The translations under genes were made by a program, and so were the position numbers. Below are positions 2,912-49,484 of a DNA stretch of 64,000 bases, one piece after another. The notes beneath the pieces were generated by a model. It saw only the letters and a list, made by a program, of their open reading frames with translations, ran no database searches and had not been told where the DNA came from. This DNA is from Actinomycetota bacterium (GTDB taxonomy: Bacteria; Actinomycetota; UBA4738; HRBIN12): NCBI GenBank assembly GCA_036280655.1, contig DASUQI010000010.1, positions 13,104-77,103 of the forward strand, read 5' to 3'. Every line of letters starts with the position of its first letter. Position 1 is the first letter of the stretch.

Positions 2912-4150
2912 TCATCCTATGGGGTCGTCGCGCGCTTCTTTCTGGCCCTCGGCGCATGGCTCACGCTGCTCGTTCGGGTTCCGGGCGGGCGTCGTCTCGG
3001 CCGCCGGGCGTGGGTCCGAAGGCCCGAGGGATATGCCGCGGCGTCGAAGCAGCTCGTGGTACTCGGATCGGCGCTCAAAGGTGTCGCGCAGCTGCTCGCC
3101 GAGGGCATCGACGAACTGATCCCGGTACGCCGTATCTACGAGGATCGTCACCGCGTAGTACAGGCCTGCGAACGCCGCCACACCTGTGGCTACCCTGACC
3201 AGCTCCCAGGTCACTTGCACGCGCTCGCCGAACCAGGCGATCTCCCAGATGACGGAGTTCGTGTGCAAGAGCCACGCGCCGCGCACATCGGAGGAAACGA
3301 GCAGGGTGCCGAGCAGGACATAGAAGAGCCACACCGCCGCGCTCACGAACAGCACCTGCAACGATTCGCTGATCAGTGCAACGGCTGCGAGGTTCAAGCG
3401 CTCGCGACGGCGGAGGGGCACATCGCCCACCTGTGAGTCGGCCTGCACTTCACGGACGACCCCGGGAAGTCGCACGGAGAGGAAGCCGAAGCCAAGCACA
3501 ACGAAAGTTCCGATCGCAGTCCAGTACGTCGCGGATCCCGTCGTCGTGAACACCTGCCAGATCTCCGTGGTGAAGAACATGACCAGCGAGAAGAACAGCA
3601 GGAGCGGTACGGTTCGGACGAGCACTGCGACCGAGGCGCCGAGCTGCCCGAAGAACCTGATACCCACCCATCGCACGATCGAGATGAGCCCGAATCCGAC
3701 CACGAGGTAGGCGAGGCCGACGAGCGCAGCGTTCACCAGGATCGTGTTGACGCCGAAGACGAACTGGCCACTGAAGGCTATGGGGAGCAACGCGGGCAAC
3801 ACGATGAACGCGACGAGCTCTGGGGTGCCCACACGCCGAGGGATCGACCAGAACGGACGCCCTCGCACGACGTTCAGCACGCCGAAACCACCGAGCAGGA
3901 CGGCCGCCCCGCCGAGCGCGAGCAGCAGGTTGGTCGTCCAGCTCGCCTCGATATCGAGCGCGTTGACGATCTCGATCACGAAGATCAATGCGAGGAACGG
4001 GCTGGCGCGCGTGAAGATGTCCTCGGTCACGGAGAGGTCGACGATCAAGTTCGGCAGGCCGTCGCGACGGAACCCTCGTTCGAGCTCACGGATGCGTTCT
4101 GTTCCCTCGTCCACCGAGGAATCGAACCACAGCCCACGCTGCGAGTTCAT
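2912..4150 (-). CDS. Polytopic integral membrane protein, hypothetical
   Basis: About 10 hydrophobic helices (e.g. FLALIFVIEIVNAL, LVGLAYLVVGFGLISIV, LLLFFSLVMFFTT). Local GC is lower than its surroundings. The C-terminal ~45 aa are low-complexity and the true 3' end is uncertain. Confidence 0.55.
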   Translation of the reverse strand: MNSQRGLWFDSSVDEGTERIRELERGFRRDGLPNLIVDLSVTEDIFTRASPFLALIFVIEIVNALDIEASWTTNLLLALGGAAVLLGGFGVLNVVRGRPFWSIPRRVGTPELVAFIVLPALLPIAFSGQFVFGVNTILVNAALVGLAYLVVGFGLISIVRWVGIRFFGQLGASVAVLVRTVPLLLFFSLVMFFTTEIWQVFTTTGSATYWTAIGTFVVLGFGFLSVRLPGVVREVQADSQVGDVPLRRRERLNLAAVALISESLQVLFVSAAVWLFYVLLGTLLVSSDVRGAWLLHTNSVIWEIAWFGERVQVTWELVRVATGVAAFAGLYYAVTILVDTAYRDQFVDALGEQLRDTFERRSEYHELLRRRGISLGPSDPRPAAETTPARNPNEQREPCAEGQKEARDDPIG

Positions 4151-24310: not shown

Positions 24311-25345
24311 ATGCAGGTGCAACCGTGGGGACGGGCGTTCGAGGGGCGCATCGACGAGCTCGAGATCGAGAGCGAGGTCCTGAAGGGCAACGTGCTCGGC
24401 GATCCGCACGTCCGGCCGCTCTGGGTCTACACGCCGCCGGGCTATGACGACGAGCCGGGCCGCCGGTACCCGAGTGTGTACATCATCCAGGGGTTGACCG
24501 GGCAGCTCGACATGTGGCGCAACCGCGAGCCGTTCCGCCACAACTTCCCCGAGAACACCGACGCGCTGTTCGCGTCCGGCGAAGCGCCGCCGGCGATCGT
24601 CGTGTTCGTCGACTGCTGGACCTCGCTCGGCGGGAGCCAGTTCCTGAACTCGCCGGGCACCGGCCGCTACCAGGACTTCCTGTGCGACGAGACGGTCGCG
24701 TTCGTCGACGAACGGTACCGCACGATCGCCGACCGGGACCACCGAGGCATCCAGGGCAAGTCGAGCGGCGGCTACGGCGCTTTCGTGGTTCCGATGATGC
24801 GGCCCGACGTGTTCGGGGCGCTCGCATCGCACGCCGGCGACGCGCTGTTCGAGGCGTGTTACCTGCCCGGCTTCCCGGCAACGGTCCGCGCGCTGCGCGA
24901 GCACTACGGCGGCTCGTACGAGCGGTTCTGGGAGGACTTCCGCTCGCGTCCGGCGATGACGAAGAAGGACGACGACAACCTGCTGAACGACTGGTGCATG
25001 GCCGCGTGCTACTCGGCCGACGAGGACGGGACCGTGCGGCTGCCGTTCGACACGGAGACCGGGGTGCTGATCGACGAGGTCTGGGAGCGCTGGCTCGCGG
25101 TCGACCCGGTGCGGATGGTGCCGGAGCACGCGGACGATCTGCGTTCGATGCGCGGGATCTGGATCGACGCCGGCACGCGGGACGAGTGGTACCTCGACAA
25201 CGGCGCGGTCGCGGTCTCGAAGCAGCTCGAGGCGATCGACGTGGAGCACACCCTCGAGCTGTTCGACGCCGGGCACATGGCGATCGGGTACCGGTACCCG
25301 CGCTCGCTCGCGTTCCTCGCCGGGGTGCTTTCGGCTGCGGCGTGA
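24311..25345 (+). CDS. Esterase (putative esterase / enterochelin-esterase-like alpha/beta hydrolase)
   Basis: GKSSGGYGA nucleophile elbow (GxSxG). Start trimmed to ATG 24311, preceded by gaggaggcagg. Confidence 0.7.
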   Translation: MQVQPWGRAFEGRIDELEIESEVLKGNVLGDPHVRPLWVYTPPGYDDEPGRRYPSVYIIQGLTGQLDMWRNREPFRHNFPENTDALFASGEAPPAIVVFVDCWTSLGGSQFLNSPGTGRYQDFLCDETVAFVDERYRTIADRDHRGIQGKSSGGYGAFVVPMMRPDVFGALASHAGDALFEACYLPGFPATVRALREHYGGSYERFWEDFRSRPAMTKKDDDNLLNDWCMAACYSADEDGTVRLPFDTETGVLIDEVWERWLAVDPVRMVPEHADDLRSMRGIWIDAGTRDEWYLDNGAVAVSKQLEAIDVEHTLELFDAGHMAIGYRYPRSLAFLAGVLSAAA

Positions 25346-25378
25346 CGAAGGCGAAAGGCGATCGCGTCCGGCGAACCC

Positions 25379-25966
25379 CTACGCGCTCGTCCGGCCGCGT
25401 CGCCTGACCAGGAGCGCCATCCGGGACGCGATCGCCACCAGCATCGCGAGTCCGATGGGTTGCCAGAGGCTTGTCGCGGATACCAGCGTCTGTGTCGGAT
25501 CCGGTTCTCCCGGTCGAGAAGTGGCCTGAGCGGGCGAGGCCCCGCTGTGTGTGACAACCAACCTTTCCGTTGACGAGATCACCGAATCCGATCCAGCACC
25601 CCTTGCCGCCCTTGCCGGGTGGACAGACCCACACGTGGTACCGGCCGCTTGACATCCGTGGCACGTTGAAGACGACGCTGACCGCGTAGGTTTCCCCAAC
25701 CTCGGTCTTGTCCGGCAGCTGCTGGCCGATCCGCGCTCGCCAACAGATGGTGCGCCGGGCAGCAGGTAGCAGTACCAGAGTGGCCCGCTCCGAACGAGGT
25801 AGACGGCGTACGGTCCGTCCTCGGGTTGCCCGCTGCCTGGCCACGTCTCCACGACCGCGTGGGCCACGGCCCGATCGCCGGGTTCGTAGGAGTCTTGTTC
25901 GATTCGCAACGAGGAGCCCTTCGCCCACGCATGTGGAGACATCAGGCTCACGAGGAGGACAACCAT
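25379..25966 (-). CDS. Hypothetical secreted protein with C-terminal hydrophobic anchor and basic tail
   Basis: Signal peptide MVVLLVSLMSPHAWA, an S/T-rich middle, and a C-terminal IGLAMLVAIASRMALLVRRRGR (TM plus RRR). It lies in a locally lower-GC segment. The reading frame is uncertain; a second partly overlapping ORF (25579..25932) in another frame suggests possible decay. Confidence 0.35.
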   Translation of the reverse strand: MVVLLVSLMSPHAWAKGSSLRIEQDSYEPGDRAVAHAVVETWPGSGQPEDGPYAVYLVRSGPLWYCYLLPGAPSVGERGSASSCRTRPRLGKPTRSASSSTCHGCQAAGTTCGSVHPARAARGAGSDSVISSTERLVVTHSGASPAQATSRPGEPDPTQTLVSATSLWQPIGLAMLVAIASRMALLVRRRGRTSA

Positions 25967-26118
25967 CGCAACGCCTCGAGTGCCCTCTGGGCATCGAAAA
26001 GGTGACCCTCCCAGCTACCCTCCGGTTCCAGCCCCGCGAGCGACGGTGTACGCCAAAGAACGTTCGTCCGCGGTCTGGGAGACTGGCTGACCGCCCGCAT
26101 ACGGAGGACGTGACGCCC

Positions 26119-33646: not shown

Positions 33647-34252
33647 GTGGCGATGGTCCGGCGAGCGTTCCTCACCCTCGTGCTGAGCGGGATCGCGCTG
33701 GCGATCCCGGTGCCCGCCTCGGCGGGCGGCGGCGGGTGCTCCGAGGTCACCGAGGGCACCGGCACGACCGTCGAGATGCTCTACGCTTGCCTGACGCCGA
33801 CCCTGTTGCGCGTCCAGCCCGGCGAGACCGTCACGTTCGTGAACCGCGACGAGTTCCGGCACGTGATCTCGGGCTCCGGCTACGCCTGGAGCAGCGACGG
33901 GAACATGAAACCCGGCGAGGCGTTCACCGCGACGTTCCGCAACGACGGGGTGTACCCGTACCAGTGCTTCCTGCACCCCGGCATGGCGGGCGCCGTGATC
34001 GTGGGCGACGCAACCGGTCCCGGCGCCGCGGACCGAGGTGGCGTGTTCGTGGCTCCGTTCGAGGTCGAACAGCAGCCCCCCGAGGTCGTCTACGTGACCC
34101 GGGCGCCCCAACCGGGTGCGACGTCGACGTCATCCGGATCGCCGGTTGCGCTTGTCGGCGGCATCCTGGTCGGCGTCGCGGTCGGGGCGATCGTGACGCT
34201 CGGTGTGCGGAGCTCGGCCGCGCGGCGCCGCATGAGAGACGTGACGACCTGA
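33647..34252 (+). CDS. Membrane-anchored cupredoxin, paralog 2
   Basis: Same architecture as paralog 1: FRHVI ... YQCFLHPGM, and a C-terminal TM (LVGGILVGVAVGAIVTLGV). Confidence 0.7.
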   Translation: MAMVRRAFLTLVLSGIALAIPVPASAGGGGCSEVTEGTGTTVEMLYACLTPTLLRVQPGETVTFVNRDEFRHVISGSGYAWSSDGNMKPGEAFTATFRNDGVYPYQCFLHPGMAGAVIVGDATGPGAADRGGVFVAPFEVEQQPPEVVYVTRAPQPGATSTSSGSPVALVGGILVGVAVGAIVTLGVRSSAARRRMRDVTT

Positions 34253-36063
34253 TGGCGACCCGCGCGACCTCCCTCCCCTTCCCCAGGGTCCGGCGCCGGC
34301 ACGTCCGCGTTCGGCACCCGGCGCCGGTGGTCGGCGTCCTCCTCGTGCTCGTGTCGGTGGCCTCGCTCGCGACCGCGCTCGGCAGGCTGCCGGTCGAGGC
34401 CTCCCCTCCGCGCGCCGAACAGGTTGCAGGGCTCGCCGCGCTGCGGCCACCCGCGTCGCTCGACACGATCCCCGGGATCGAGGAGGCGGCGTGGCCGAGG
34501 AGCCGGTATCCGGTGGGCGGCTTCGCGTTCGTCCGGTGCACGAACCTGTGGACGGCCCACGCCGACGGCTCCGCGCCTCGTCGCATCCTGACGATGCCGG
34601 GCATCTCGTCGCCGACCTTCTCCCCCGATGGACGGACGATCGCGTTCCTCGCCGCGGGAACGGCCGGGACCGAGATCTGGCTCGCGGCGGCCGACGGCTC
34701 GGTCGCGCGGCGGCTCGGGACGATCGCGGTGGACGGCGAACCGGTCCTGACGAACGTCGGCCCGCTCGCGTGGTCGCCGGACGGCACCCGGCTCGCGTTC
34801 TCGCTGATGCCGGCCGCCCTGCGCGGCGGCACGCCGAGCCACTGGGCTCTGCGGCTGGACGCCGGGATGTTCGACCCGATCGGCGAGGGCGGCGACGAAC
34901 CCGTCTGGCTCGGCCGCCAGGTCCTCGTGGCCGGGCGGGACGGCGGCGGGGTGGACAACCTCTGGGGCGACCGGTGGACCGCACGACGGCTGTCGAAGCT
35001 CGGGGACGTCGAGGCGCTCGCGTTCGCGCCGGGCTGGTGGGCCTGGGAGTGGGAGAAGCAGACGGCGGTGCTCGCCGACGACGGCGACGAGCTCGCGCTC
35101 TCCTGGCAGAAGCGGCCGTGGGGCGTCGGCTCCGATCTCGAGACGGCCCCGCCCGCCGGATACGCGTTCGACCCGGGCAGCGGGCTCGCGATCCTGCAGC
35201 ACGGGACCGTCGCCGTGACGCTCCTCGACCCATCGGGCGAACGCGATCTCGGGCTCTTCGACCCGAGCTCGTTCACGTGGGAGACGCTGGACTACGCGTG
35301 GGACGCGGCCGGGAGCCCGGCCCCGGCGGTCGTCGGCTCCATCGAGGAGCAGCGCGCGGTCGAGCTCGCGCGCGACGTGCTCTGGAGCCTCGGACGGCCG
35401 GATCGGGTCCAAGCCGACCTGCTGCTCGCCGAGCCGCTGGATCCGGGCCTCATCCCGTTCGCGCACGTCGGCTCCGCGATCGACGACGCGGTGCGCGAGG
35501 GCGATGCGTGGACGATCCCCGCGCACACCTATGGCCGGATGGGCGCCGCGATCGGTACCCGCGACGTAACGGTGACGGTTCAGGGGGTGGACGGACGGCT
35601 CGCGGCGACGCTCGCGGCGGCCGGTCCGATCGTCCGCCTCCGAACCGTGGACGACGCGGCCCGCTTCCTCGAACGCGTCCTCACCGTCCCGGTGATCGCC
35701 CCCGCGGGGCTCCCCGAGGGCACCCGACTCGCGTCGCGCTGGGCGGTCGAGGCCTGGTCGTGGCGGGGTAGGACGACCGGGTCGCTGCACGTCGTCGCGC
35801 CCGGGATCGGCCGGCTCGACTTCTTCTACGGGGACGGAGGGCTCGGCTGCGGCGCGTACCCGGTGCCGCTCGAGCTCGGGACCGGGACCCAGGCGATCGT
35901 CCAGGACCCCGAGATGAGCGACGGCTACAACGCGATCGCCTGGCCCGCGGCGCCGAAGGACTCGAGCGGTCCCTTCGGCATCTCGGCGAACACCTCGACC
36001 GAGACGCTCGTCGCGATCGCGACCGCGATGGATGCCTCGAGGCGCTCGACCCGGTCAGACTAG
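34252..36063 (+). CDS. TolB-like beta-propeller (PD40/WD40-like) periplasmic protein with N-terminal TM
   Basis: The ATG overlaps the cupredoxin-2 stop. PD40 repeats (SPTFSPDGRTIAF, LAWSPDGTRLAF). 603 aa. Confidence 0.65.
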   Translation: MATRATSLPFPRVRRRHVRVRHPAPVVGVLLVLVSVASLATALGRLPVEASPPRAEQVAGLAALRPPASLDTIPGIEEAAWPRSRYPVGGFAFVRCTNLWTAHADGSAPRRILTMPGISSPTFSPDGRTIAFLAAGTAGTEIWLAAADGSVARRLGTIAVDGEPVLTNVGPLAWSPDGTRLAFSLMPAALRGGTPSHWALRLDAGMFDPIGEGGDEPVWLGRQVLVAGRDGGGVDNLWGDRWTARRLSKLGDVEALAFAPGWWAWEWEKQTAVLADDGDELALSWQKRPWGVGSDLETAPPAGYAFDPGSGLAILQHGTVAVTLLDPSGERDLGLFDPSSFTWETLDYAWDAAGSPAPAVVGSIEEQRAVELARDVLWSLGRPDRVQADLLLAEPLDPGLIPFAHVGSAIDDAVREGDAWTIPAHTYGRMGAAIGTRDVTVTVQGVDGRLAATLAAAGPIVRLRTVDDAARFLERVLTVPVIAPAGLPEGTRLASRWAVEAWSWRGRTTGSLHVVAPGIGRLDFFYGDGGLGCGAYPVPLELGTGTQAIVQDPEMSDGYNAIAWPAAPKDSSGPFGISANTSTETLVAIATAMDASRRSTRSD

Positions 36064-36685
36064 GCCGGCAGCGGGATCCGCGCCTGCTGGAGCTGCAGCG
36101 TGAAGTCGTGCGGGTTCGAGCTTGCGCCGAGGGCCGCCTCGACCGAGACCTTCCCGGCCTTCACGAGACCGAGCAGGCTCTGGTCGAACGTGCTCAGCAC
36201 GAGGCCGCGCGGCTCGTCGGCAAGCTGGCTGATCACGTCGGGCAGCCCCATCTCGTCGAAACCCGGGCCGCCGAACCGCAGCTTGCGAGCACCGCCGAGT
36301 ACGAGCCGCGCTGCCGGAACGCGTTCACCCGGAACCGACCGACGCCCGCGAGCGAGTACGCGAAGTCGATCTCGCCCGATGTCTCGAGCCGCTCACGCCG
36401 TTCGGGCGGGACGATCGCCTCGACGATCGTGGTCGCCTCGTCGTTGCCGAGCGGCGCGTGGTCGAGCGGGATCAGCGCGCCCGCGTCGCGGATCTTCGGC
36501 GGCGTGCCGACCTTGATGTGCAGGTCCGAGGCCTCGCGGCGGACGACCTCAGCGAGCCACGCATCGAACTCGTCGAGCACGGTCTGGCCGGGTCGTTCGT
36601 GGATCTCGGCGAGGTGGACGGTGTCACGGTCGTGAGCCTGATGCTGGGTCGGGCCGTCGCCCTCGGGCCGGTCTGGTTCGATCAT
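36060..36685 (-). pseudogene. pilT: pilT (type IV pilus retraction ATPase) remnant - internally deleted and frameshifted
   Basis: ORF 36233..36685 encodes the PilT N-domain (ASDLHIKVGTPPKIR ... GEIDFAYSLAGVGRFRVNAFRQRGSYSAV). ORF 36060..36251, in another frame, encodes the segment just before Walker A (GLPDVISQLADEPRGLVL) fused directly to the PilT C-terminus (STFDQSLLGLVKAGKVS...). The ~180-aa ATPase core (Walker A/B, His box) is absent. Confidence 0.7.
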
Positions 36686-36765
36686 GCCCTGTCCTCCTCA
36701 CCCGGGTCAGCTCGTGCGGTAGGTCTATCGGACGACCCGGGGGCCTCCCTGAGCGGGGAGCCCGA

Positions 36766-37446
36766 TCAGGCGCGGCGGGCCGAGAACCTGCAGGTCGCGC
36801 GCTCGGTGAGGGGCGCGAACTCCTTCAGCTCGAGCGGCGGCGAAAGCGCCCCCAGCATCCCCTCGAGGAGGCCCTTGTGGACTGCGCACACGAGCTCGCG
36901 ATGGTCCTCGAGCAGCTCGCGGAACGGGCAGTCGCGGAGCGTGACCTCGACGGCACCCCCGTCCTCGCGGCGGAACCGCGGATCGAACCCGGCGGAGGCC
37001 ATCGCCTCCTGCAGCACGGCGAGGTTGTGGCGCGCCGCAGCACGCGTCCCCGGCTTCGGGCCACCGCGGATCGCGAGGTAGCGTCCCCACTCCTTCGCGA
37101 GGTCGGCGGCGCGGGTCCGCGACCTCGCGCCCGCGGCGAGGCCGGCGAGGATCTCGGCGAGCAGGCGGAAGTCGCGGTTCTCGCGTTCGGCAGTCTCGAG
37201 CGCGACGTAGAGCGTCTGCGGCCGGCCGACCGAGCTCCCCCGCCGGATCTCGCGCCGGACCAGCCCGGCCTCCTCGAGCCGTCGCAGGTGCGGGCGGAGC
37301 GTGTTCGGATGCAGCGAGAGCCGCGTGGCGAGCTCGCGGACGGACACGGCGCGTCCCGACAGGCCGAGGTACCGATACAGGCGGAAGCGCGTGTCGTCGG
37401 CGAGTGCCTTGTGGATCTCGAGCGCGGTGGCCTCACGCGTGGGCAT
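36766..37446 (-). CDS. HTH transcriptional regulator (ArsR-like winged helix plus C-terminal domain)
   Basis: N-terminal wHTH (IHKALADDTRFRLYRYL...SVRELATRLSLHPNTLRPHLRRLEEAGLV). Divergent from mrp; the palindrome GGCGTCGACGCC lies in the shared promoter region. Confidence 0.65.
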   Translation of the reverse strand: MPTREATALEIHKALADDTRFRLYRYLGLSGRAVSVRELATRLSLHPNTLRPHLRRLEEAGLVRREIRRGSSVGRPQTLYVALETAERENRDFRLLAEILAGLAAGARSRTRAADLAKEWGRYLAIRGGPKPGTRAAARHNLAVLQEAMASAGFDPRFRREDGGAVEVTLRDCPFRELLEDHRELVCAVHKGLLEGMLGALSPPLELKEFAPLTERATCRFSARRA

Positions 37447-37477
37447 CGCGGGCTCCGAGCACGTGCGGCCGAACGGA

Positions 37478-37489
37478 GGCGTCGACGCC
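37478..37489. promoter_or_regulatory. Perfect 12-bp palindrome GGCGTCGACGCC in divergent ArsR-like regulator / mrp promoter region (candidate operator)
   Basis: ggcgtc|gacgcc is exact, positioned about 30 bp upstream of the regulator's start codon. Confidence 0.4.
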
Positions 37490-37576
37490 TACCGACGCCC
37501 CGCGTACCATGGGAGTAAGCACGGTCCGCACCGTGGGAATCAGGATAATCCCGCTCGAACCAGGGAGGTCACCCCG

Positions 37577-38731
37577 TTGGTCACCGAGGACCAGGTCAGA
37601 CAGGCCCTCCGAGGCGTCATGGACCCCGAGATCGGCCGCCCGATCGAGGACCTCGGCATGCTGCGCGGGATCCAGATCGAGGAGGGCGGGCTCGTCCGTG
37701 TGCACGTCCTCATCACGATCGAGGGCTGCCCGCTCAAGGACCGGATCACGAGCGACGTGACCGCGGCGCTCGCGCCGATCGAGGGCGTCGAAAACGTCGA
37801 GGTCGCGCTCGCGCCGATGAGCGAAGAGCAGCGCGCCTCCCTCGTCGCGACGCTCCGGGGCGGCGAGGCGCAGCCCCAGCAGCAGAAGACGTTCTTCGCG
37901 GGCTCCGACACGACGGTGATCGCTGTCGCCTCGGGCAAGGGCGGCGTCGGCAAGTCGAGCGTCACGGTGAACCTCGCGTGCGCGCTCGCCGCCGAGGGCC
38001 ACCGCGTGGGGGTGCTCGACGCCGACGTCTGGGGGTTCAGCGTCCCGCGGATGATGGGCGTGACCGGCAAGCCGGTCGGGTTCAACGACATGATCCTGCC
38101 GCTCGAGTCGCACGGCGTGAAGGTGATCTCGATGGGGTTCTTCGTCCCCGAGGAGACGCCGGTGATCTGGCGCGGCCCGATGCTCCACAAGGCGATCGAG
38201 CAGTTCCTCGGCGACGTCTACTGGGGCGAACTCGACTTCCTGCTCTGCGACCTCCCGCCCGGCACCGGCGACGTCTCGATCAGCCTCGCGTCGTTCCTGC
38301 CGGGCGCGACGATGCTCGTCGTCACGACCCCGCAGGAGGCGGCGCGCAAGGTGGCCGAACGCGCGGGCAAGATGGCCGAGCGGACGAACCTCCGGCCGAT
38401 CGGCGTGATCGAGAACATGTCGTGGTACGTCTGCCCGCACTGCGGCGAACGCGAGTTTATCTTCGGGACCGGTGGCGGCGACGAGGCGGCCGAGACCCTC
38501 GGCGTGCCGCTCCTCGCGCAGGTGCCGCTGGTCACCGAGCTCCGCGACGGCGGCGACCGCGGCAAGCCGATCGTGGTGAACGATCCCGACGGGCCTGCGA
38601 GCGTGGCGCTCCGCGACGCGGCCCGGAAGATCGCGCAGGAGACGCGGTCGAAGGTTCGCAAGCCGCTGCCGCTGATGGCCAAGCCCGGCGCGCCCGTCAC
38701 CGCCGGTGGGCACCACGGCCACGCCCACTGA
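37577..38731 (+). CDS. apbC: Mrp/ApbC/NBP35-family Fe-S cluster carrier ATPase
   Basis: DUF59-like N-domain, Walker A (ASGKGGVGKSSVT), CxxC (CPHCGE). TTG start at 37577 lies 8 nt after cagggagg. Confidence 0.85.
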   Translation: MVTEDQVRQALRGVMDPEIGRPIEDLGMLRGIQIEEGGLVRVHVLITIEGCPLKDRITSDVTAALAPIEGVENVEVALAPMSEEQRASLVATLRGGEAQPQQQKTFFAGSDTTVIAVASGKGGVGKSSVTVNLACALAAEGHRVGVLDADVWGFSVPRMMGVTGKPVGFNDMILPLESHGVKVISMGFFVPEETPVIWRGPMLHKAIEQFLGDVYWGELDFLLCDLPPGTGDVSISLASFLPGATMLVVTTPQEAARKVAERAGKMAERTNLRPIGVIENMSWYVCPHCGEREFIFGTGGGDEAAETLGVPLLAQVPLVTELRDGGDRGKPIVVNDPDGPASVALRDAARKIAQETRSKVRKPLPLMAKPGAPVTAGGHHGHAH

Positions 38732-39156
38732 TCGACGTTCCCCAGGCGGCAAGGAGGTCCCCGCCGGGCCCGAGGCGCGGTTCGCGTGCGCCTGGTGCGG
38801 CGCGACCGCCGCGATCGTCCGCGCCGTCCCGGCCGGTCACCGCGTGGGCTTCGACCGGCCGTCGGGCTCGGACACGTACGCGCAAGACGGCGTCTACGTC
38901 CGGTTCCTCGGAGAGCAGTGGACGGCGGTGGAGGATCCCGACGTACCGGCGACTGACCACGGTGCTCGCCGCGCCCGACGTCGATGCCTCGGCCCTCTGG
39001 GCCGGGTTCCCGGCGCTGGCGCGCTTCCGGTGCCCGGCGTGCGAGAGGTGCTACTGCGCCGCGCACTGGGTCGAGGTGCCGGTCTTCGACGATGGGTTCT
39101 ACGACTTCACGACGGGGACCTGCCCGCGGGGCCACGAGGCGATGATCGACGACTGA
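38706..39156 (+). pseudogene. Zinc-ribbon protein gene, apparently frameshifted (two CxxC halves in different frames)
   Basis: Frame A (from 38706) encodes ...ARFACAWCGATAAIV...YVRFLGEQWTAVEDPD. A different frame from ~38940 encodes ...ALARFRCPACERCYCAAHWVEVPVFDDGFYDFTTGTCPRGHEAMIDD and ends at 39156. The switch is near 38935-38950. It could equally be a sequencing error, or only the second half may be the real gene. Confidence 0.3.
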
Positions 39157-39159
39157 GGG

Positions 39160-40110
39160 CTATGGCTCGGAGAGCTCCTCCGTCTGCGGGCCGACGTCCC
39201 CCTCGGCGGGACGGCCGCCCTCGGGTCCCCTCGGTCGCATCGCCCAGATGATCAGCGTGACGATGCAGACGATCGACACGGTCAGTCCCGTCCACTGGCT
39301 CCCGGTGAGGCCGAAGACCTGTTTGTCGACGCGCAGGAAATCCTCGACGACGCGGACGAGTCCGTAGATCGCGCCGAACGTGAGCGTGAGGACCCCGAGC
39401 CGCCGCGGCTGCCGCGACATCGCGTACAGGATCAGGAACAGCACGGTCGCGAGGAACATGTCGTAGAGCGCGGTCTGGTGGACGCCGACGCCGGTCGAGA
39501 GCACCTGGCCCGACGCCGAGGTCAGCGTCGCGTTCGCGTGCGAGATCGTGAGGACCTGGCCCTGCTCCAGGGTCGTCCGGCAGGTGTCGGCGACGCACGA
39601 GAACCCCGCCGGCGTGCCGCCCTCGTATTGGAACGCGAGGAGCCAGCTCGTCGGCTTGCCGAAGTGGTCCCCGATGATCAGGTCGCCGATCCGGCCGAAC
39701 GCGATCCCGAACGCGAGACCGATCACCGCGCCGTCCATCACCTGGAAGAACGACAGGTGGAACTTGCGCATGATCGGGATGTTGATGAGCACCGCGCCCG
39801 CGATCCCGCCGAGGAGCGTGAGCCCCCCGTTCCACAGCGCGAGCATGTCCCCGATGCCGTCGAACTCGGAGAAGTGGCCGATCACGTAGAACAGCCGAGC
39901 GCCGATGATCGTCCCGATCAGCGCCCAGAACACCATCGTGTTGATCTGGTCGACCGTGACGCCGCGCTTCGGCCCCTCGTGCTGAAGGATCCACGCGCCG
40001 AACAGGAACCCGACCGCGATGCCGATCCCGTGCGGGCTGATCGCGAAGTCTCCGAACAGGTGGATGCGGTCGAGGACGGGCCAGCCGATCGAAGCGAGCA
40101 CGCCGCTCAC
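39160..40110 (-). CDS. lgt: Prolipoprotein diacylglyceryl transferase
   Basis: Lgt blocks (GARLFYV, GGLTLLGG, GRIGDLIIGDHFGKPT). Start trimmed to GTG 40108-40110; the 65 upstream codons in the track ORF are R/S/T/P-rich junk. Confidence 0.8.
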   Translation of the reverse strand: MSGVLASIGWPVLDRIHLFGDFAISPHGIGIAVGFLFGAWILQHEGPKRGVTVDQINTMVFWALIGTIIGARLFYVIGHFSEFDGIGDMLALWNGGLTLLGGIAGAVLINIPIMRKFHLSFFQVMDGAVIGLAFGIAFGRIGDLIIGDHFGKPTSWLLAFQYEGGTPAGFSCVADTCRTTLEQGQVLTISHANATLTSASGQVLSTGVGVHQTALYDMFLATVLFLILYAMSRQPRRLGVLTLTFGAIYGLVRVVEDFLRVDKQVFGLTGSQWTGLTVSIVCIVTLIIWAMRPRGPEGGRPAEGDVGPQTEELSEP

Positions 40111-40120
40111 GTGGCCGAGT

Positions 40121-40705
40121 CTATCGGCGCTCGTCGAACAGGGAGGCGACGGCCCGTCCGAGCAGCAGCCCGCCGGCGACGTCCGCCGGGTAGTGGACGC
40201 CGAGGTACGGTCGGGACGCGCCAACCGCGCCGGCCAGCGCGTCGAGTCCGAGCCGCGCCGAGGCGCTCGCCTCGAGCTCGTCGGCGGCCACCGTCGTGAA
40301 GGCAAGCAGGACGGCCGGGTGGGTGCTCGGCCAGGAGGAGCCGTTCGGCCGCGCGATGCGGCGGTTGGTGCCCTCGGGATCGGCGTCCGACGGGCGCGGA
40401 CGGTCGAACACCCGCTTCAGGCCCTGGCCGGCGAGCCAGGCGATCCCGGCGGCAGCCATCCCTCGCGCCGCGGCCCTCCGGCGGCCCGAGGCGGCGAGCA
40501 CCGCCGCGGCGCCGGCCGACGCCCAGATCGAGCCCAGCTCCGTGATCCCGCCGAAGACCCGGTCGGTCGCCGGCCCCCGGTCGCGGTTCGCGGCGCGGAA
40601 GGCCTCCTCGTCGAGCTCGCGGCCGCGCCCGGCCGAGCTCCACGCACCGACCGCGAGCGCCCCGCCGACGAGGGCGGCAGCTCGGACCACCGAGCGAGCG
40701 TTCAT
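40121..40705 (-). CDS. PAP2-family lipid phosphatase
   Basis: KRVFDRPRP (KxxxxxxRP), SSWPSTH (PSGH-like), GVHYPADV (HxxxD) - the tripartite PAP2 signature. Immediately upstream of lgt. Confidence 0.7.
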   Translation of the reverse strand: MNARSVVRAAALVGGALAVGAWSSAGRGRELDEEAFRAANRDRGPATDRVFGGITELGSIWASAGAAAVLAASGRRRAAARGMAAAGIAWLAGQGLKRVFDRPRPSDADPEGTNRRIARPNGSSWPSTHPAVLLAFTTVAADELEASASARLGLDALAGAVGASRPYLGVHYPADVAGGLLLGRAVASLFDERR

Positions 40706-47466: not shown

Positions 47467-48832
47467 CCGCCCGCGAGAGCAGCGCCGCCACGCCGAACGC
47501 GACGAGGAAGCTCGGGATGCTCGCGCCGAGTCGCGAGTCGAACAGCGGGAACGGCAGGCCGAGCGCCCCGAACGCGTCGCCGAGCACATCTACCCAGCCG
47601 TCGGGTCCCGTCGGCACGCTCCACTGGTAGACGACAAAGCCGAGTACCCACGGCACGAACGCGGGCCACCGCACCCCGCTCCGCTCGAACAGCGCGGCCT
47701 CCCCGTAGCGGCCGCGGCAGCGCACGAAGTAGTCGGCGAGTAGGACCGCGGCGAGCGGCACGAACACCGACCCGATCAGGAACAGGAACGTCTCGTAGCG
47801 CTCGACCGTGAAGGCGAGCGCGAGGATGAGGCCGACCGTGCCCACGATCAGGATCAGCGGCGCCTGGCGCGCCTTGGGCGCGACGTTCCGCGCCGAGACC
47901 GCGGCCGAGTAGATGTCGGCGAACGCGTTGTCGCTCTCGCCGACGAGGAGCGCGAGCAGCACGATCCCGCCCCCGGCGAGGAACACGATCCCGCCGCCGA
48001 TCCCCACGGCGTCCGCGCCCACCCCGGTCACGAGCACGAGCAGTGCGCCGAGCGCGTAGAACCACGCGTTGCCGACCGCGTAGCCGGCGTACGTCCCGAT
48101 CGCGGCCCGCGAGCCCGGCCGCGCGAACCGGCTATAGTCGGCGGCGAGCGGCAGCCACGAGATCGGCATCACGATCACGAGGTCGACGGCGAGCCAGAAC
48201 GGCAGACCGCCCGCGGCCGGCGTCTCCCAGATCGCCCACCCACTCCCGGCCCGCAGCACGTCGACCGTGATCCACACGGCCGCGCCGAGCAACACGTAGA
48301 TCCCGAACCGCTGGAGCCAGCGTCGAACGACGAAGACCGGCCCGCCGAGCGCGAGCGCGGTGCACACGACGGCGACGACGACGATCCAGAACGCGCGGGA
48401 CCCGAACCCGAACAGGCGCTCCGACGCGACGCTCGCGACCTCGCCCATCGCCCAGAACTCGACCGCCGTCCACCCGACGAGCTGCACGACGTTGATCACC
48501 GACGGGACGAACGAGCCACGCTCCCCCAGGACCGGCCGGAGCAAGACCATCGTCGGCACGCCCTCGCGCTGGCCGGCGAGCGCGACGAGCGCGAGCGGGA
48601 CGCACCCGATCAGCGACCCCACCGCGATCGCGAGCAGCGCCTGCGGCGGCCCGAGCGCGGGCACGAGCAGCGCGCCGGTCACCATCACGAGCAGGCCGAT
48701 CGATAGGTCGAACCACAGGATCGCCGCGTCGAGGCCGCCGAGTCGCCGTTCTGCGACGGGGATCGGGCGGAGGCCGGGCGCGGCGTCCTCGCGCCCGAGG
48801 ATCCGCTCGATGCGTTGCGTGACGCTCGCCAC
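47444..48832 (-). CDS. NCS1-family nucleobase/cytosine/allantoin:cation symporter
   Basis: 12-TM permease with NCS1/CodB-like blocks (WFDLSIGLLVMVTGALLVP ... NAFADIYSAAVS). Confidence 0.8.
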   Translation of the reverse strand: MASVTQRIERILGREDAAPGLRPIPVAERRLGGLDAAILWFDLSIGLLVMVTGALLVPALGPPQALLAIAVGSLIGCVPLALVALAGQREGVPTMVLLRPVLGERGSFVPSVINVVQLVGWTAVEFWAMGEVASVASERLFGFGSRAFWIVVVAVVCTALALGGPVFVVRRWLQRFGIYVLLGAAVWITVDVLRAGSGWAIWETPAAGGLPFWLAVDLVIVMPISWLPLAADYSRFARPGSRAAIGTYAGYAVGNAWFYALGALLVLVTGVGADAVGIGGGIVFLAGGGIVLLALLVGESDNAFADIYSAAVSARNVAPKARQAPLILIVGTVGLILALAFTVERYETFLFLIGSVFVPLAAVLLADYFVRCRGRYGEAALFERSGVRWPAFVPWVLGFVVYQWSVPTGPDGWVDVLGDAFGALGLPFPLFDSRLGASIPSFLVAFGVAALLSRAATRRPRD

Positions 48833-48840
48833 GGGTGCTC

Positions 48841-48888
48841 CCTCCGCCGGTCTGAACCGGTTCAGGTTCCAAGGGTCGCCGGCGGAGG
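48841..48888. promoter_or_regulatory. Nested inverted repeat / stem-loop in 5' region of NCS1 transporter gene
   Basis: Outer 10-bp arms cctccgccgg / ccggcggagg (48841-48850 / 48879-48888) enclose a perfect 14-bp palindrome ctgaaccggttcag (48852-48865), about 10-50 nt upstream of the transporter start (48832, minus strand). Confidence 0.4.
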
Positions 48889-48968
48889 ATCGTGTCAGCC
48901 GGCCTCTCAGCCCGTGCCCCGGACTCCCCTGCTTCGGGTCCGATGGTACCGCCCGCTACGATGCCCGG

Positions 48969-49484
48969 ATGACGACACGCGACGAGGCGATCCGGCTCCT
49001 GGAAGACCAGCACGCGGAGGTCGCGGCACTGCTCGCCGAGCTCGACACTTCAGCCTTCGAGCGGCGCGGCACGATCGGCGGCGGCGAGTGGTCGGCGAAG
49101 GACCTCGCCGCGCATCTCGGCGCGTGGGAGGGGTTCGTGCTCGAGGTGCTCGAGGCGTTCGGCCGCGGCGAGCGACCCGCGTTCGAGGACGAGTTCCTCG
49201 AGCCGGGGGCGACCGACCGGCTCAACGCCCGCGAGGAGCGACGGTTCCTCGACGCCCCGGCCGACGAGGTCCTGGCGAGGTTCGAGGACCTGCACCGCAG
49301 CGTGGTCGGCGTGATCGGGTCGATGTCCGACGACGGATGGGCGGCCGCATACCCGTACGACCCGGACGACGCGACGATCGGCGACCGGGTGGGCTCGCTC
49401 CTCGGCTCGGACGACGGCCGGTTCCGCCACGCGTCGGCGCACCTGCCCGACCTCCGCGACTACGTCGGCTCGATCAGCCGCTGA
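48969..49484 (+). CDS. DinB/ClbS-like four-helix-bundle protein (DUF1706-like)
   Basis: GEWSAKDLAAHLGAWEGFVLEVLEAF - a DinB_2/ClbS-type metal-binding helix pair. 171 aa. Confidence 0.55.
   Translation: MTTRDEAIRLLEDQHAEVAALLAELDTSAFERRGTIGGGEWSAKDLAAHLGAWEGFVLEVLEAFGRGERPAFEDEFLEPGATDRLNAREERRFLDAPADEVLARFEDLHRSVVGVIGSMSDDGWAAAYPYDPDDATIGDRVGSLLGSDDGRFRHASAHLPDLRDYVGSISR

Follow-up and report, generated by a model that had tools for sequence, protein, structure and literature searches.

Positions 36060-36685, on the minus strand of the window (the whole 64,000-nucleotide stretch of DNA that was analysed), very probably represent a solitary ATPase gene of the PilT/PilU family that has become a non-functional pseudogene in the lineage to which the window belongs; this is the best explanation of the evidence as a whole. 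The original prediction of a pilT relic with a deleted ATPase core and a frameshift is borne out by translation, by the TIGR01420 profile, by the PilT of Thermus thermophilus (PDB 5fl3), and by alignment to L008, an intact ortholog from a close relative. The features of the locus, from the upstream regulator to the convergent downstream gene, are as follows.

36766..37446, minus strand: HTH_20 (ArsR-like) regulator, 226 aa, same-strand upstream neighbour and anchor of the locus (Pfam HTH_20, E 3e-14)
36693..36698, minus strand: Shine-Dalgarno-like GGAGGA, 7 nt 5' of the ATG at 36685 (found by reading; putative role)
36060..36685, minus strand: very probable pseudogene remnant of pilT, from the ATG to the former stop codon (TIGR01420 positions 2-128 and 314-343)
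36233..36685, minus strand: ORF A, 150 aa, comprising the PilT N-terminal domain (aa 1-133) and a 17-aa out-of-frame tail that ends at TGA
36287..36288, minus strand: 1-nt deletion (-1 frameshift), GTGCTCCGC to GTGCTCGC (alignment column 436)
36197..36286, minus strand: linker just before Walker A, RKLRFGGPGFDEMGLPDVISQLADEPRGLV, out of frame with ORF A (TIGR01420 positions ~101-128 once repaired)
36196..36197, minus strand: junction of the 561-nt deletion, GGCCTCGTGC / TGAGCACG, with 1-nt microhomology (DNA alignment)
36060..36251, minus strand: ORF B, 63 aa, in a different frame from ORF A (three-frame translation)
36060..36196, minus strand: C-terminal remnant STFDQSLLGLVKAGKVSVEAALGASSNPHDFTLQLQQARIPLPA and stop (aligned to L008 PilT and 5fl3)
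34252..36063, plus strand: PD40 / Tricorn_N-like beta-propeller protein, 603 aa, convergent downstream neighbour (Pfam PD40, E 8e-11)

Lesions in the Remnant

Three-frame translation of the minus strand gives, in ORF A, the reading MIEPD...ASDLHIKVGTPPKIR...GRFRVNAFRQRGSYSAVL followed by out-of-frame sequence and, in a second frame, RKLRFGGPGFDEMGLPDVISQLADEPRGLVL joined straight to STFDQSLLGLVKAGKVS...PLPA and the stop codon, which overlaps that of the convergent PD40 gene. An intact N-terminal PilT domain followed by a shift of frame is therefore present as first described (ORF A, TIGR01420 positions 2-100). The third-position G+C content (GC3) of ORF A is 0.88. The Shine-Dalgarno-like GGAGGA is also kept in L008 (GGTGAGGAGGACA); with this strong site and an ATG surviving in the window, a 150-aa polypeptide could still be made. 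A scan of 35900-37600 for a consensus promoter or terminator found none, a result that is uninformative at the 71% G+C of the window.

The reference for the lesions is L008 (MAG MFD05454.bin.2.5, CAWAWO01), which came from a scan of species-representative genomes and whose regulator and Mrp are, respectively, 92% and 88% identical to those of the window. At the equivalent position, L008 carries pilT as an uninterrupted ORF of 388 aa flanked by the ArsR/HTH_20 regulator and the PD40 gene, which is the arrangement (an intact pilT between the regulator and a TolB-like gene) that had been suggested as worth seeking in a relative. Its product scores 440.5 bits over profile positions 2-343 of TIGR01420, the NCBIfam model for PilT/PilU (curated cut-off, 319.1 bits), and can be aligned over its whole length with PilT proteins of known structure (E 1e-103 to 5fl3).

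In the DNA alignment, the remnant is colinear with the L008 gene (L008:6764-7930) except for a 561-nt gap and a 1-nt gap. The first lesion takes out precisely 561 nt, or 187 codons, equivalent to residues ~158-344 of L008 PilT, and on plus-strand coordinates its junction lies at 36196/36197; the Walker A, Asp box, Walker B, and His box motifs all fall within the lost segment, so the reading that Walker A and Walker B are absent holds. The direct joining of the segment preceding Walker A to the C-terminal helix region was likewise read correctly; the deletion, estimated at ~180 aa, amounts to 187 codons. The C-terminal remnant beyond the junction is 91% identical to L008 PilT residues 344-388 and aligns to residues 324-363 of 5fl3. 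The second lesion, at 36287/36288, is the loss of a single C from GTGCT[C]CGC, which splits the gene into the 150-aa and 63-aa ORFs. That C (alignment column 436) is present in L008 and in alleles L001, L002, and L090-L094 described below, and is missing in the window and in alleles L087-L089.

Membership in the PilT/PilU Family

Judged from sequence, the ancestral gene is a bona fide member of the PilT/PilU family. ORF A matches TIGR01420 positions 2-100 (E 2.2e-21, 76.5 bits) and ORF B positions 314-343 (E 3e-4, 20 bits). Conceptual repair, in which one base is restored, yields a 208-aa sequence that matches positions 2-128 (E 2.7e-33) with 115.6 bits, well under the family cut-off, and that aligns to residues 16-139 and 324-363 of the Thermus protein. 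The N-terminal PAS-like domain, with its SDLH...G.PP and GRFR.N.F.QRG blocks, is present. The Walker A P-loop (GPTGSGKT), which a sister allele (L001) keeps as GPTGAGKT, is absent from the window, where alignment columns 528-1088 are missing; the Asp box, Walker B (DVILIGEMRD), and His box (GHLVLSTLHT) are absent as well, and TIGR01420 positions 129-313 have no match.

The window copy lacks an uninterrupted reading frame, and it occupies the position, directly after the HTH_20 regulator, at which intact family members stand in ~47 species including L008. Because its score is under the family cut-off and it has no catalytic motif, we regard the window copy as a relic and not as a member. Mapping onto a PilT profile, as had been proposed, worked with TIGR01420 and failed with Pfam T2SSE, which detected neither fragment at E<=0.1; the T2SSE model mainly spans the deleted core, and TIGR01420 and the PDB sequences were therefore used.

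Decay among Closely Related Alleles

A protein search and contig look-ups recovered ten further assemblies of the locus, made from different samples with different assemblers, and the resulting eleven alleles (the window and these ten) share 97-99.7% nucleotide identity. If the lesions were artefacts, the genome would contain an intact pilT, with a mis-join accounting for the deletion and a homopolymer error for the frameshift. The frameshift does fall in a CC dinucleotide, and split genes abound in certain related assemblies built from long reads, L003 being one. Even so, an artefact is extremely improbable. The 561-nt junction recurs unchanged in three independent assemblies (L002, L088, and L089), as does the -1 frameshift in L087-L089; both lesions are present in short-read assemblies of separate runs (L088, L089), with L087 sharing the -1 and L002 the junction. 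Moreover, when the window is compared with L001, the 5.8 kb of coding sequence on either side, reaching from the regulator as far as Band7, has no indels, against three indel events inside the ~0.7-kb remnant. The recurrence of the same junction and the same -1 in independent assemblies, together with the indel-free flanks, establishes that the lesions are genuine and excludes assembly error.

The alleles fall into two groups. Group A (the window, L002, and L087-L089) has the 561-nt deletion, to which the window adds its -1 frameshift; L087-L089 carry the window's -1 and a second -1 near codon 12, and L002 does not have the window's -1 but has lost 3 nt and carries a -1/+1 pair by which ASDLHIKVGTPP is scrambled. 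Group B (L001 and L090-L094) has a frameshifting deletion of 368 nt that is nested within the 561 nt, and it retains coding for LVTGPTGAGKTTTLAAMIEHLNHTRQSHI and EILVNTGRIAERISDADKTTEIFDVIADGGYYEM. All members of group B have a -1 at GGG-TTC, and some have an extra 3-nt deletion, a further -1 (at about codon 72 in L090), an ATG>AAG change in the start codon (lost in L091 and L092), or a CAG>TAG change. Frameshifts occur at five or more sites across the eleven alleles, none of which (0/11) has a clean ORF, and the species yielded no allele in which the gene is intact.

Substitutions are less informative than these lesions. For the remnant, pN/pS stands at 0.52-0.69, compared with 0.14 for the flanks, the remnant figure coming from only 5-9 substitutions per pair; with three synonymous and five non-synonymous substitutions, the raised ratio is non-significant by itself. 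Among the changes are a nonsense codon and, within the conserved SDLH motif, D>N. In a relative-rate test, divergence of the N-domain from L008 was about that expected from the flanks, with no clear excess, which suggests that inactivation was recent, dates it no more closely than that, and shows no trace of a long period of neutral evolution. The case for a pseudogene therefore rests on the indels, the nonsense mutation, and the start-codon mutations, from which we infer that the remnant has no function.

The original prediction allowed that the 150-aa N-domain might be retained as a standalone protein, and a related possibility is an in-frame mini-PilT composed of the N-domain and the C-terminal helices; such a protein might, for instance, act as a modulator of some other hexameric ATPase of the secretion type. 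The window keeps the ATG and the GGAGGA ribosome-binding site, its N-domain frame is unbroken, the length of the large deletion is divisible by three as a mini-protein predicts (an outcome with a 1 in 3 chance in any case), and 150-aa versions have been called in several metagenomes (P0002, P0003). The allele series nevertheless largely refutes retention of this kind, which we consider very unlikely. The N-domain is itself broken in alleles that are 97-99.7% identical (L002, L087-L089, L090, L091, L092), by frameshifts and by ATG>AAG; the window and L001/L093 encode products that terminate after different frameshifts, so that their equal length of 150 aa is coincidental; and the sister species L007 lacks the whole gene, including the ribosome-binding site. 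An in-frame form of 207/208 aa that is free of other lesions was found in none of the eleven alleles.

Function by programmed frameshifting, or as an RNA or DNA element with a regulatory or structural role, has no specific support, and we give it next to no credence. A product read through the frameshift would still be without every ATPase motif, the position of the frameshift varies between alleles, and the segment is dispensable in L007; no conserved slippery site or RNA structure was seen across the alleles. A non-functional pseudogene remains the preferred reading of the segment.

Genomic Context and Repeated Loss among Relatives

The statement that the window has no other pilus genes is confirmed. 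In the genes of 1-58 kb, Pfam searches detected no member of the T2SSE, T2SSF, PilM/N/O, secretin, pilin, or prepilin-peptidase families, and none was recognized in the last three genes (58.5-64 kb), which were judged by eye only. The genes of 1-58 kb are metabolic and housekeeping genes, including hut, PmbA/TldD, GlpX, P450, ECF sigma factors, NfeD/Band7, Lgt, and Mrp. Likewise, no second T2SSE-family ATPase or other pilus gene was found within +/-6 kb in 86 related loci, and the intact pilT is equally solitary in ~47 related species. The missing pil neighbours are thus the ancestral layout and no sign of the loss of a cluster, and they lend no support to the original suggestion that twitching or competence machinery was lost in this lineage.

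With an alignment of the HTH_20 regulator as query, the locus was recovered from 80 species-level MAGs, all of uncultured Actinomycetota and many from soil surveys. The conserved order is PAP2-Lgt-Mrp(-)-regulator(+)-[pilT(+)]-[PD40(-)]-[cupredoxins]-anti-sigma-sigma-Band7-NfeD, in which the PD40 gene is found in some lineages only (the window, L001, L007, L008, L018, and L030). The regulator is 63-94% identical in the 80 species genomes, with or without pilT, and so is not a dedicated regulator of pilT. A 64-aa Cys-rich ORF between Mrp and Lgt was considered as a possible remnant of two extra genes that L001 has there, and was rejected for want of similarity.

A full-length, single-frame pilT directly follows the regulator at 42 of 84 loci and is intact up to the end of the contig at five more; it was scored as absent at 27 (including L015, which has a tiny 3' stub) and as a remnant at six, and the remaining four loci are uninformative, being at contig ends. 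The lesions take several forms. In L004, pilT is frameshifted and its last 119 codons are gone; L015 and L016 have ~35 C-terminal codons left, with different end points; and L057 has only a mid-gene fragment. In L007, L009, L018, L024, and L037 the regulator abuts the next gene and pilT is gone. The loss in L007 (DATFEU01), the closest species representative, extends from ~30 nt 5' of the start to just beyond the stop and takes in the ribosome-binding site.

Roughly ten independent losses or truncations of pilT have occurred in the clade, a count based on pilT-bearing neighbours in the tree and on differing lesion end points, without formal reconstruction. L003, whose assembly is rich in errors, distorts the midpoint root of the tree (neighbour joining, Mrp and regulator). 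Assembly error probably also explains the split pilT of L003, in which Mrp, Lgt, Band7, and NfeD are split as well. A deep clade of 18 species without pilT comes on top of this count and may never have had the gene.

A solitary PilT-family ATPase beside an HTH_20 regulator could be an accessory, conditionally dispensable ATPase that works with some other partner and is not a classical retraction motor. We put this forward as a speculation that is rather unlikely to be correct; if true, it would explain both the absence of pilus neighbours and the ~10 losses, and the window remnant would be one snapshot of turnover. A variant in which the surviving N-domain peptide interferes with a related hexameric ATPase is less likely.

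Proposed Course of Decay

The ancestral state in this clade of uncultured soil Actinomycetota would have been a solitary gene for a hexameric ATPase of the PilT/PilU family, directly 3' of the HTH_20 regulator, whose product may have retracted a type IV pilus. Inactivation in the lineage of the window appears to have been fairly recent, later than the split from the species of L008. The ATPase core may have been lost in two steps, the 368-nt frameshifting deletion that survives in the sister alleles coming first and a flanking deletion of 193 nt second. The sizes add up (193 + 368 = 561) and leave two possible histories. One, with the 368-nt loss in a common ancestor and the 193-nt loss in group A, is more parsimonious, and the order of events given here is that which it implies; in the other, which is possible, groups A and B lost the core independently, group A in a single step of 561 nt. 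In the two-step history as we propose it, the 1-nt deletion would have followed the loss of the core, the remnant would now be unconstrained, with separate strains gathering separate lesions, and the endpoint would be complete excision, as in a sister species.

Taken alone, an inactivated pilT from an uncultured actinobacterium of soil is of little weight. The value of the locus, which is modest, lies in a natural series of decay, within one population and among ~80 species, whose stages run from the intact gene through an inner deletion that shifts the frame, a larger one that encloses it, small indels, loss of the start, and 3' or internal stubs to excision. There is also a caveat for annotation: several public assemblies list the 150-aa ORF as a hypothetical protein, and it merits a flag as a pseudogene fragment. 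Any bearing on surface motility or DNA uptake depends on the rest of the type IV pilus system in the genome.

Comparison with Known Systems

The N-domain and the last ~45 residues of the remnant align residue for residue with the PilT/PilU retraction ATPases of type IVa pili (PDB 5fl3; Geobacter, 5zfq/6ojx; Aquifex, 2ewv; and Pseudomonas aeruginosa, 3jvu). Unlike these proteins, the window copy is frameshifted and is without the 187 codons that hold the motifs, and the intact pilT of the clade is solitary, beside a regulator and outside any pil operon.

In Francisella tularensis type B, pilT is a pseudogene by virtue of a single point mutation that creates a stop codon, and other Tfp genes are known (PMC2941502). 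The two cases are alike in that each is a natural, lineage-specific inactivation of pilT with a functional copy in close relatives (PMC2941502). In contrast to that single point mutation, the window locus combines a large deletion of the core with frameshifts, is represented by many alleles, and belongs to a gene that has been lost repeatedly across species.

Stepwise decay followed by excision under a deletional bias is the textbook fate of bacterial pseudogenes. The locus does not differ in principle from this generic course; inactivation, small indels, nested deletions, and excision are all visible here across alleles and species, in a series that is unusually complete. No new mechanism is needed, and what is seen is ordinary gene decay, unusually well documented.

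Genes Adjoining the pilT Remnant

The pilT remnant lies between two genes:

34252–36063 (+), PD40/Tricorn_N-like beta-propeller gene, adjoining the remnant
36766–37446 (−), HTH_20 regulator, neighbor of the remnant

The C-terminal half of the regulator is conserved and is kept in 80 of 80 species, with or without pilT. Its invariant Cys and His residues (RDCPF...LVCxxH...TC), together with a weak V4R-domain match (E 0.008), suggest that this half may be a ligand- or metal-sensing domain. The PD40 gene is limited to some lineages (the window, L001, L007, L008, L018, and L030). Compared with L001, the same locus from another assembly, it shows 3 synonymous and 8 non-synonymous differences, giving a pN/pS of about 1.0; the remaining flanking genes have values of 0.06–0.38 in the same comparison. 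Selection on the PD40 gene may be relaxed or diversifying; alternatively, the gene may have been acquired recently.

Variation along the Locus

Along the locus, the window and L001 diverge in a mosaic pattern. Across the region compared (window 37463–40690 and L001 2200–6960), nucleotide identity is 88.8% for PAP2, 94.0% for Lgt, and 97.1% for Mrp; from the regulator through Band7 it is 99.2%–99.7%. This mosaic suggests a recombination boundary close to Mrp. The spacer between Lgt and Mrp differs among strains (window 38732–39160; L001 3770–5690). That of L001 holds two additional genes, found in none of the other loci compared, whose apparently secreted products of 272 and 206 aa have no Pfam match. 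The window insert, which has no similarity to that of L001, contains an ORF absent from all other loci compared:

38962–39156, Cys/His-rich ORF, 64 aa (CPACERCYC...CPRGH), Lgt-Mrp spacer

Elsewhere in the window, two stretches of approximately 0.6–0.8 kb each (25345–26110 and 48832–49460) are without a confidently coding ORF by GC3 criteria, and the following product has no Pfam match at E ≤ 1e-4:

2912–4150 (−), multi-pass membrane protein, 412 aa

The cupredoxin/anti-sigma/ECF-sigma module 3′ of pilT varies among the syntenic loci of related species (L007–L086). It is carried by the window's relatives and is missing from many species, in which the order is regulator-pilT-Band7; at L056 and L069 it has moved upstream.

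Other Frameshifted pilT Copies

Split genes are numerous on the 130-kb contig of L003, a related locus (ENA ERZ1370068 contig_6605), and include Mrp, Lgt, PAP2, Band7, NfeD, and pilT. The contig looks like an uncorrected long-read assembly, and its "frameshifted pilT" proteins (P0007) are therefore best left out of any tally of pseudogenes. Three other pilT relatives with 56%–62% identity (P0013, P0066, and P0080), from contigs as long as 67 kb, are cut by frameshifts just before or after Walker A; these may be assembly errors or may represent more independent pilT pseudogenes.
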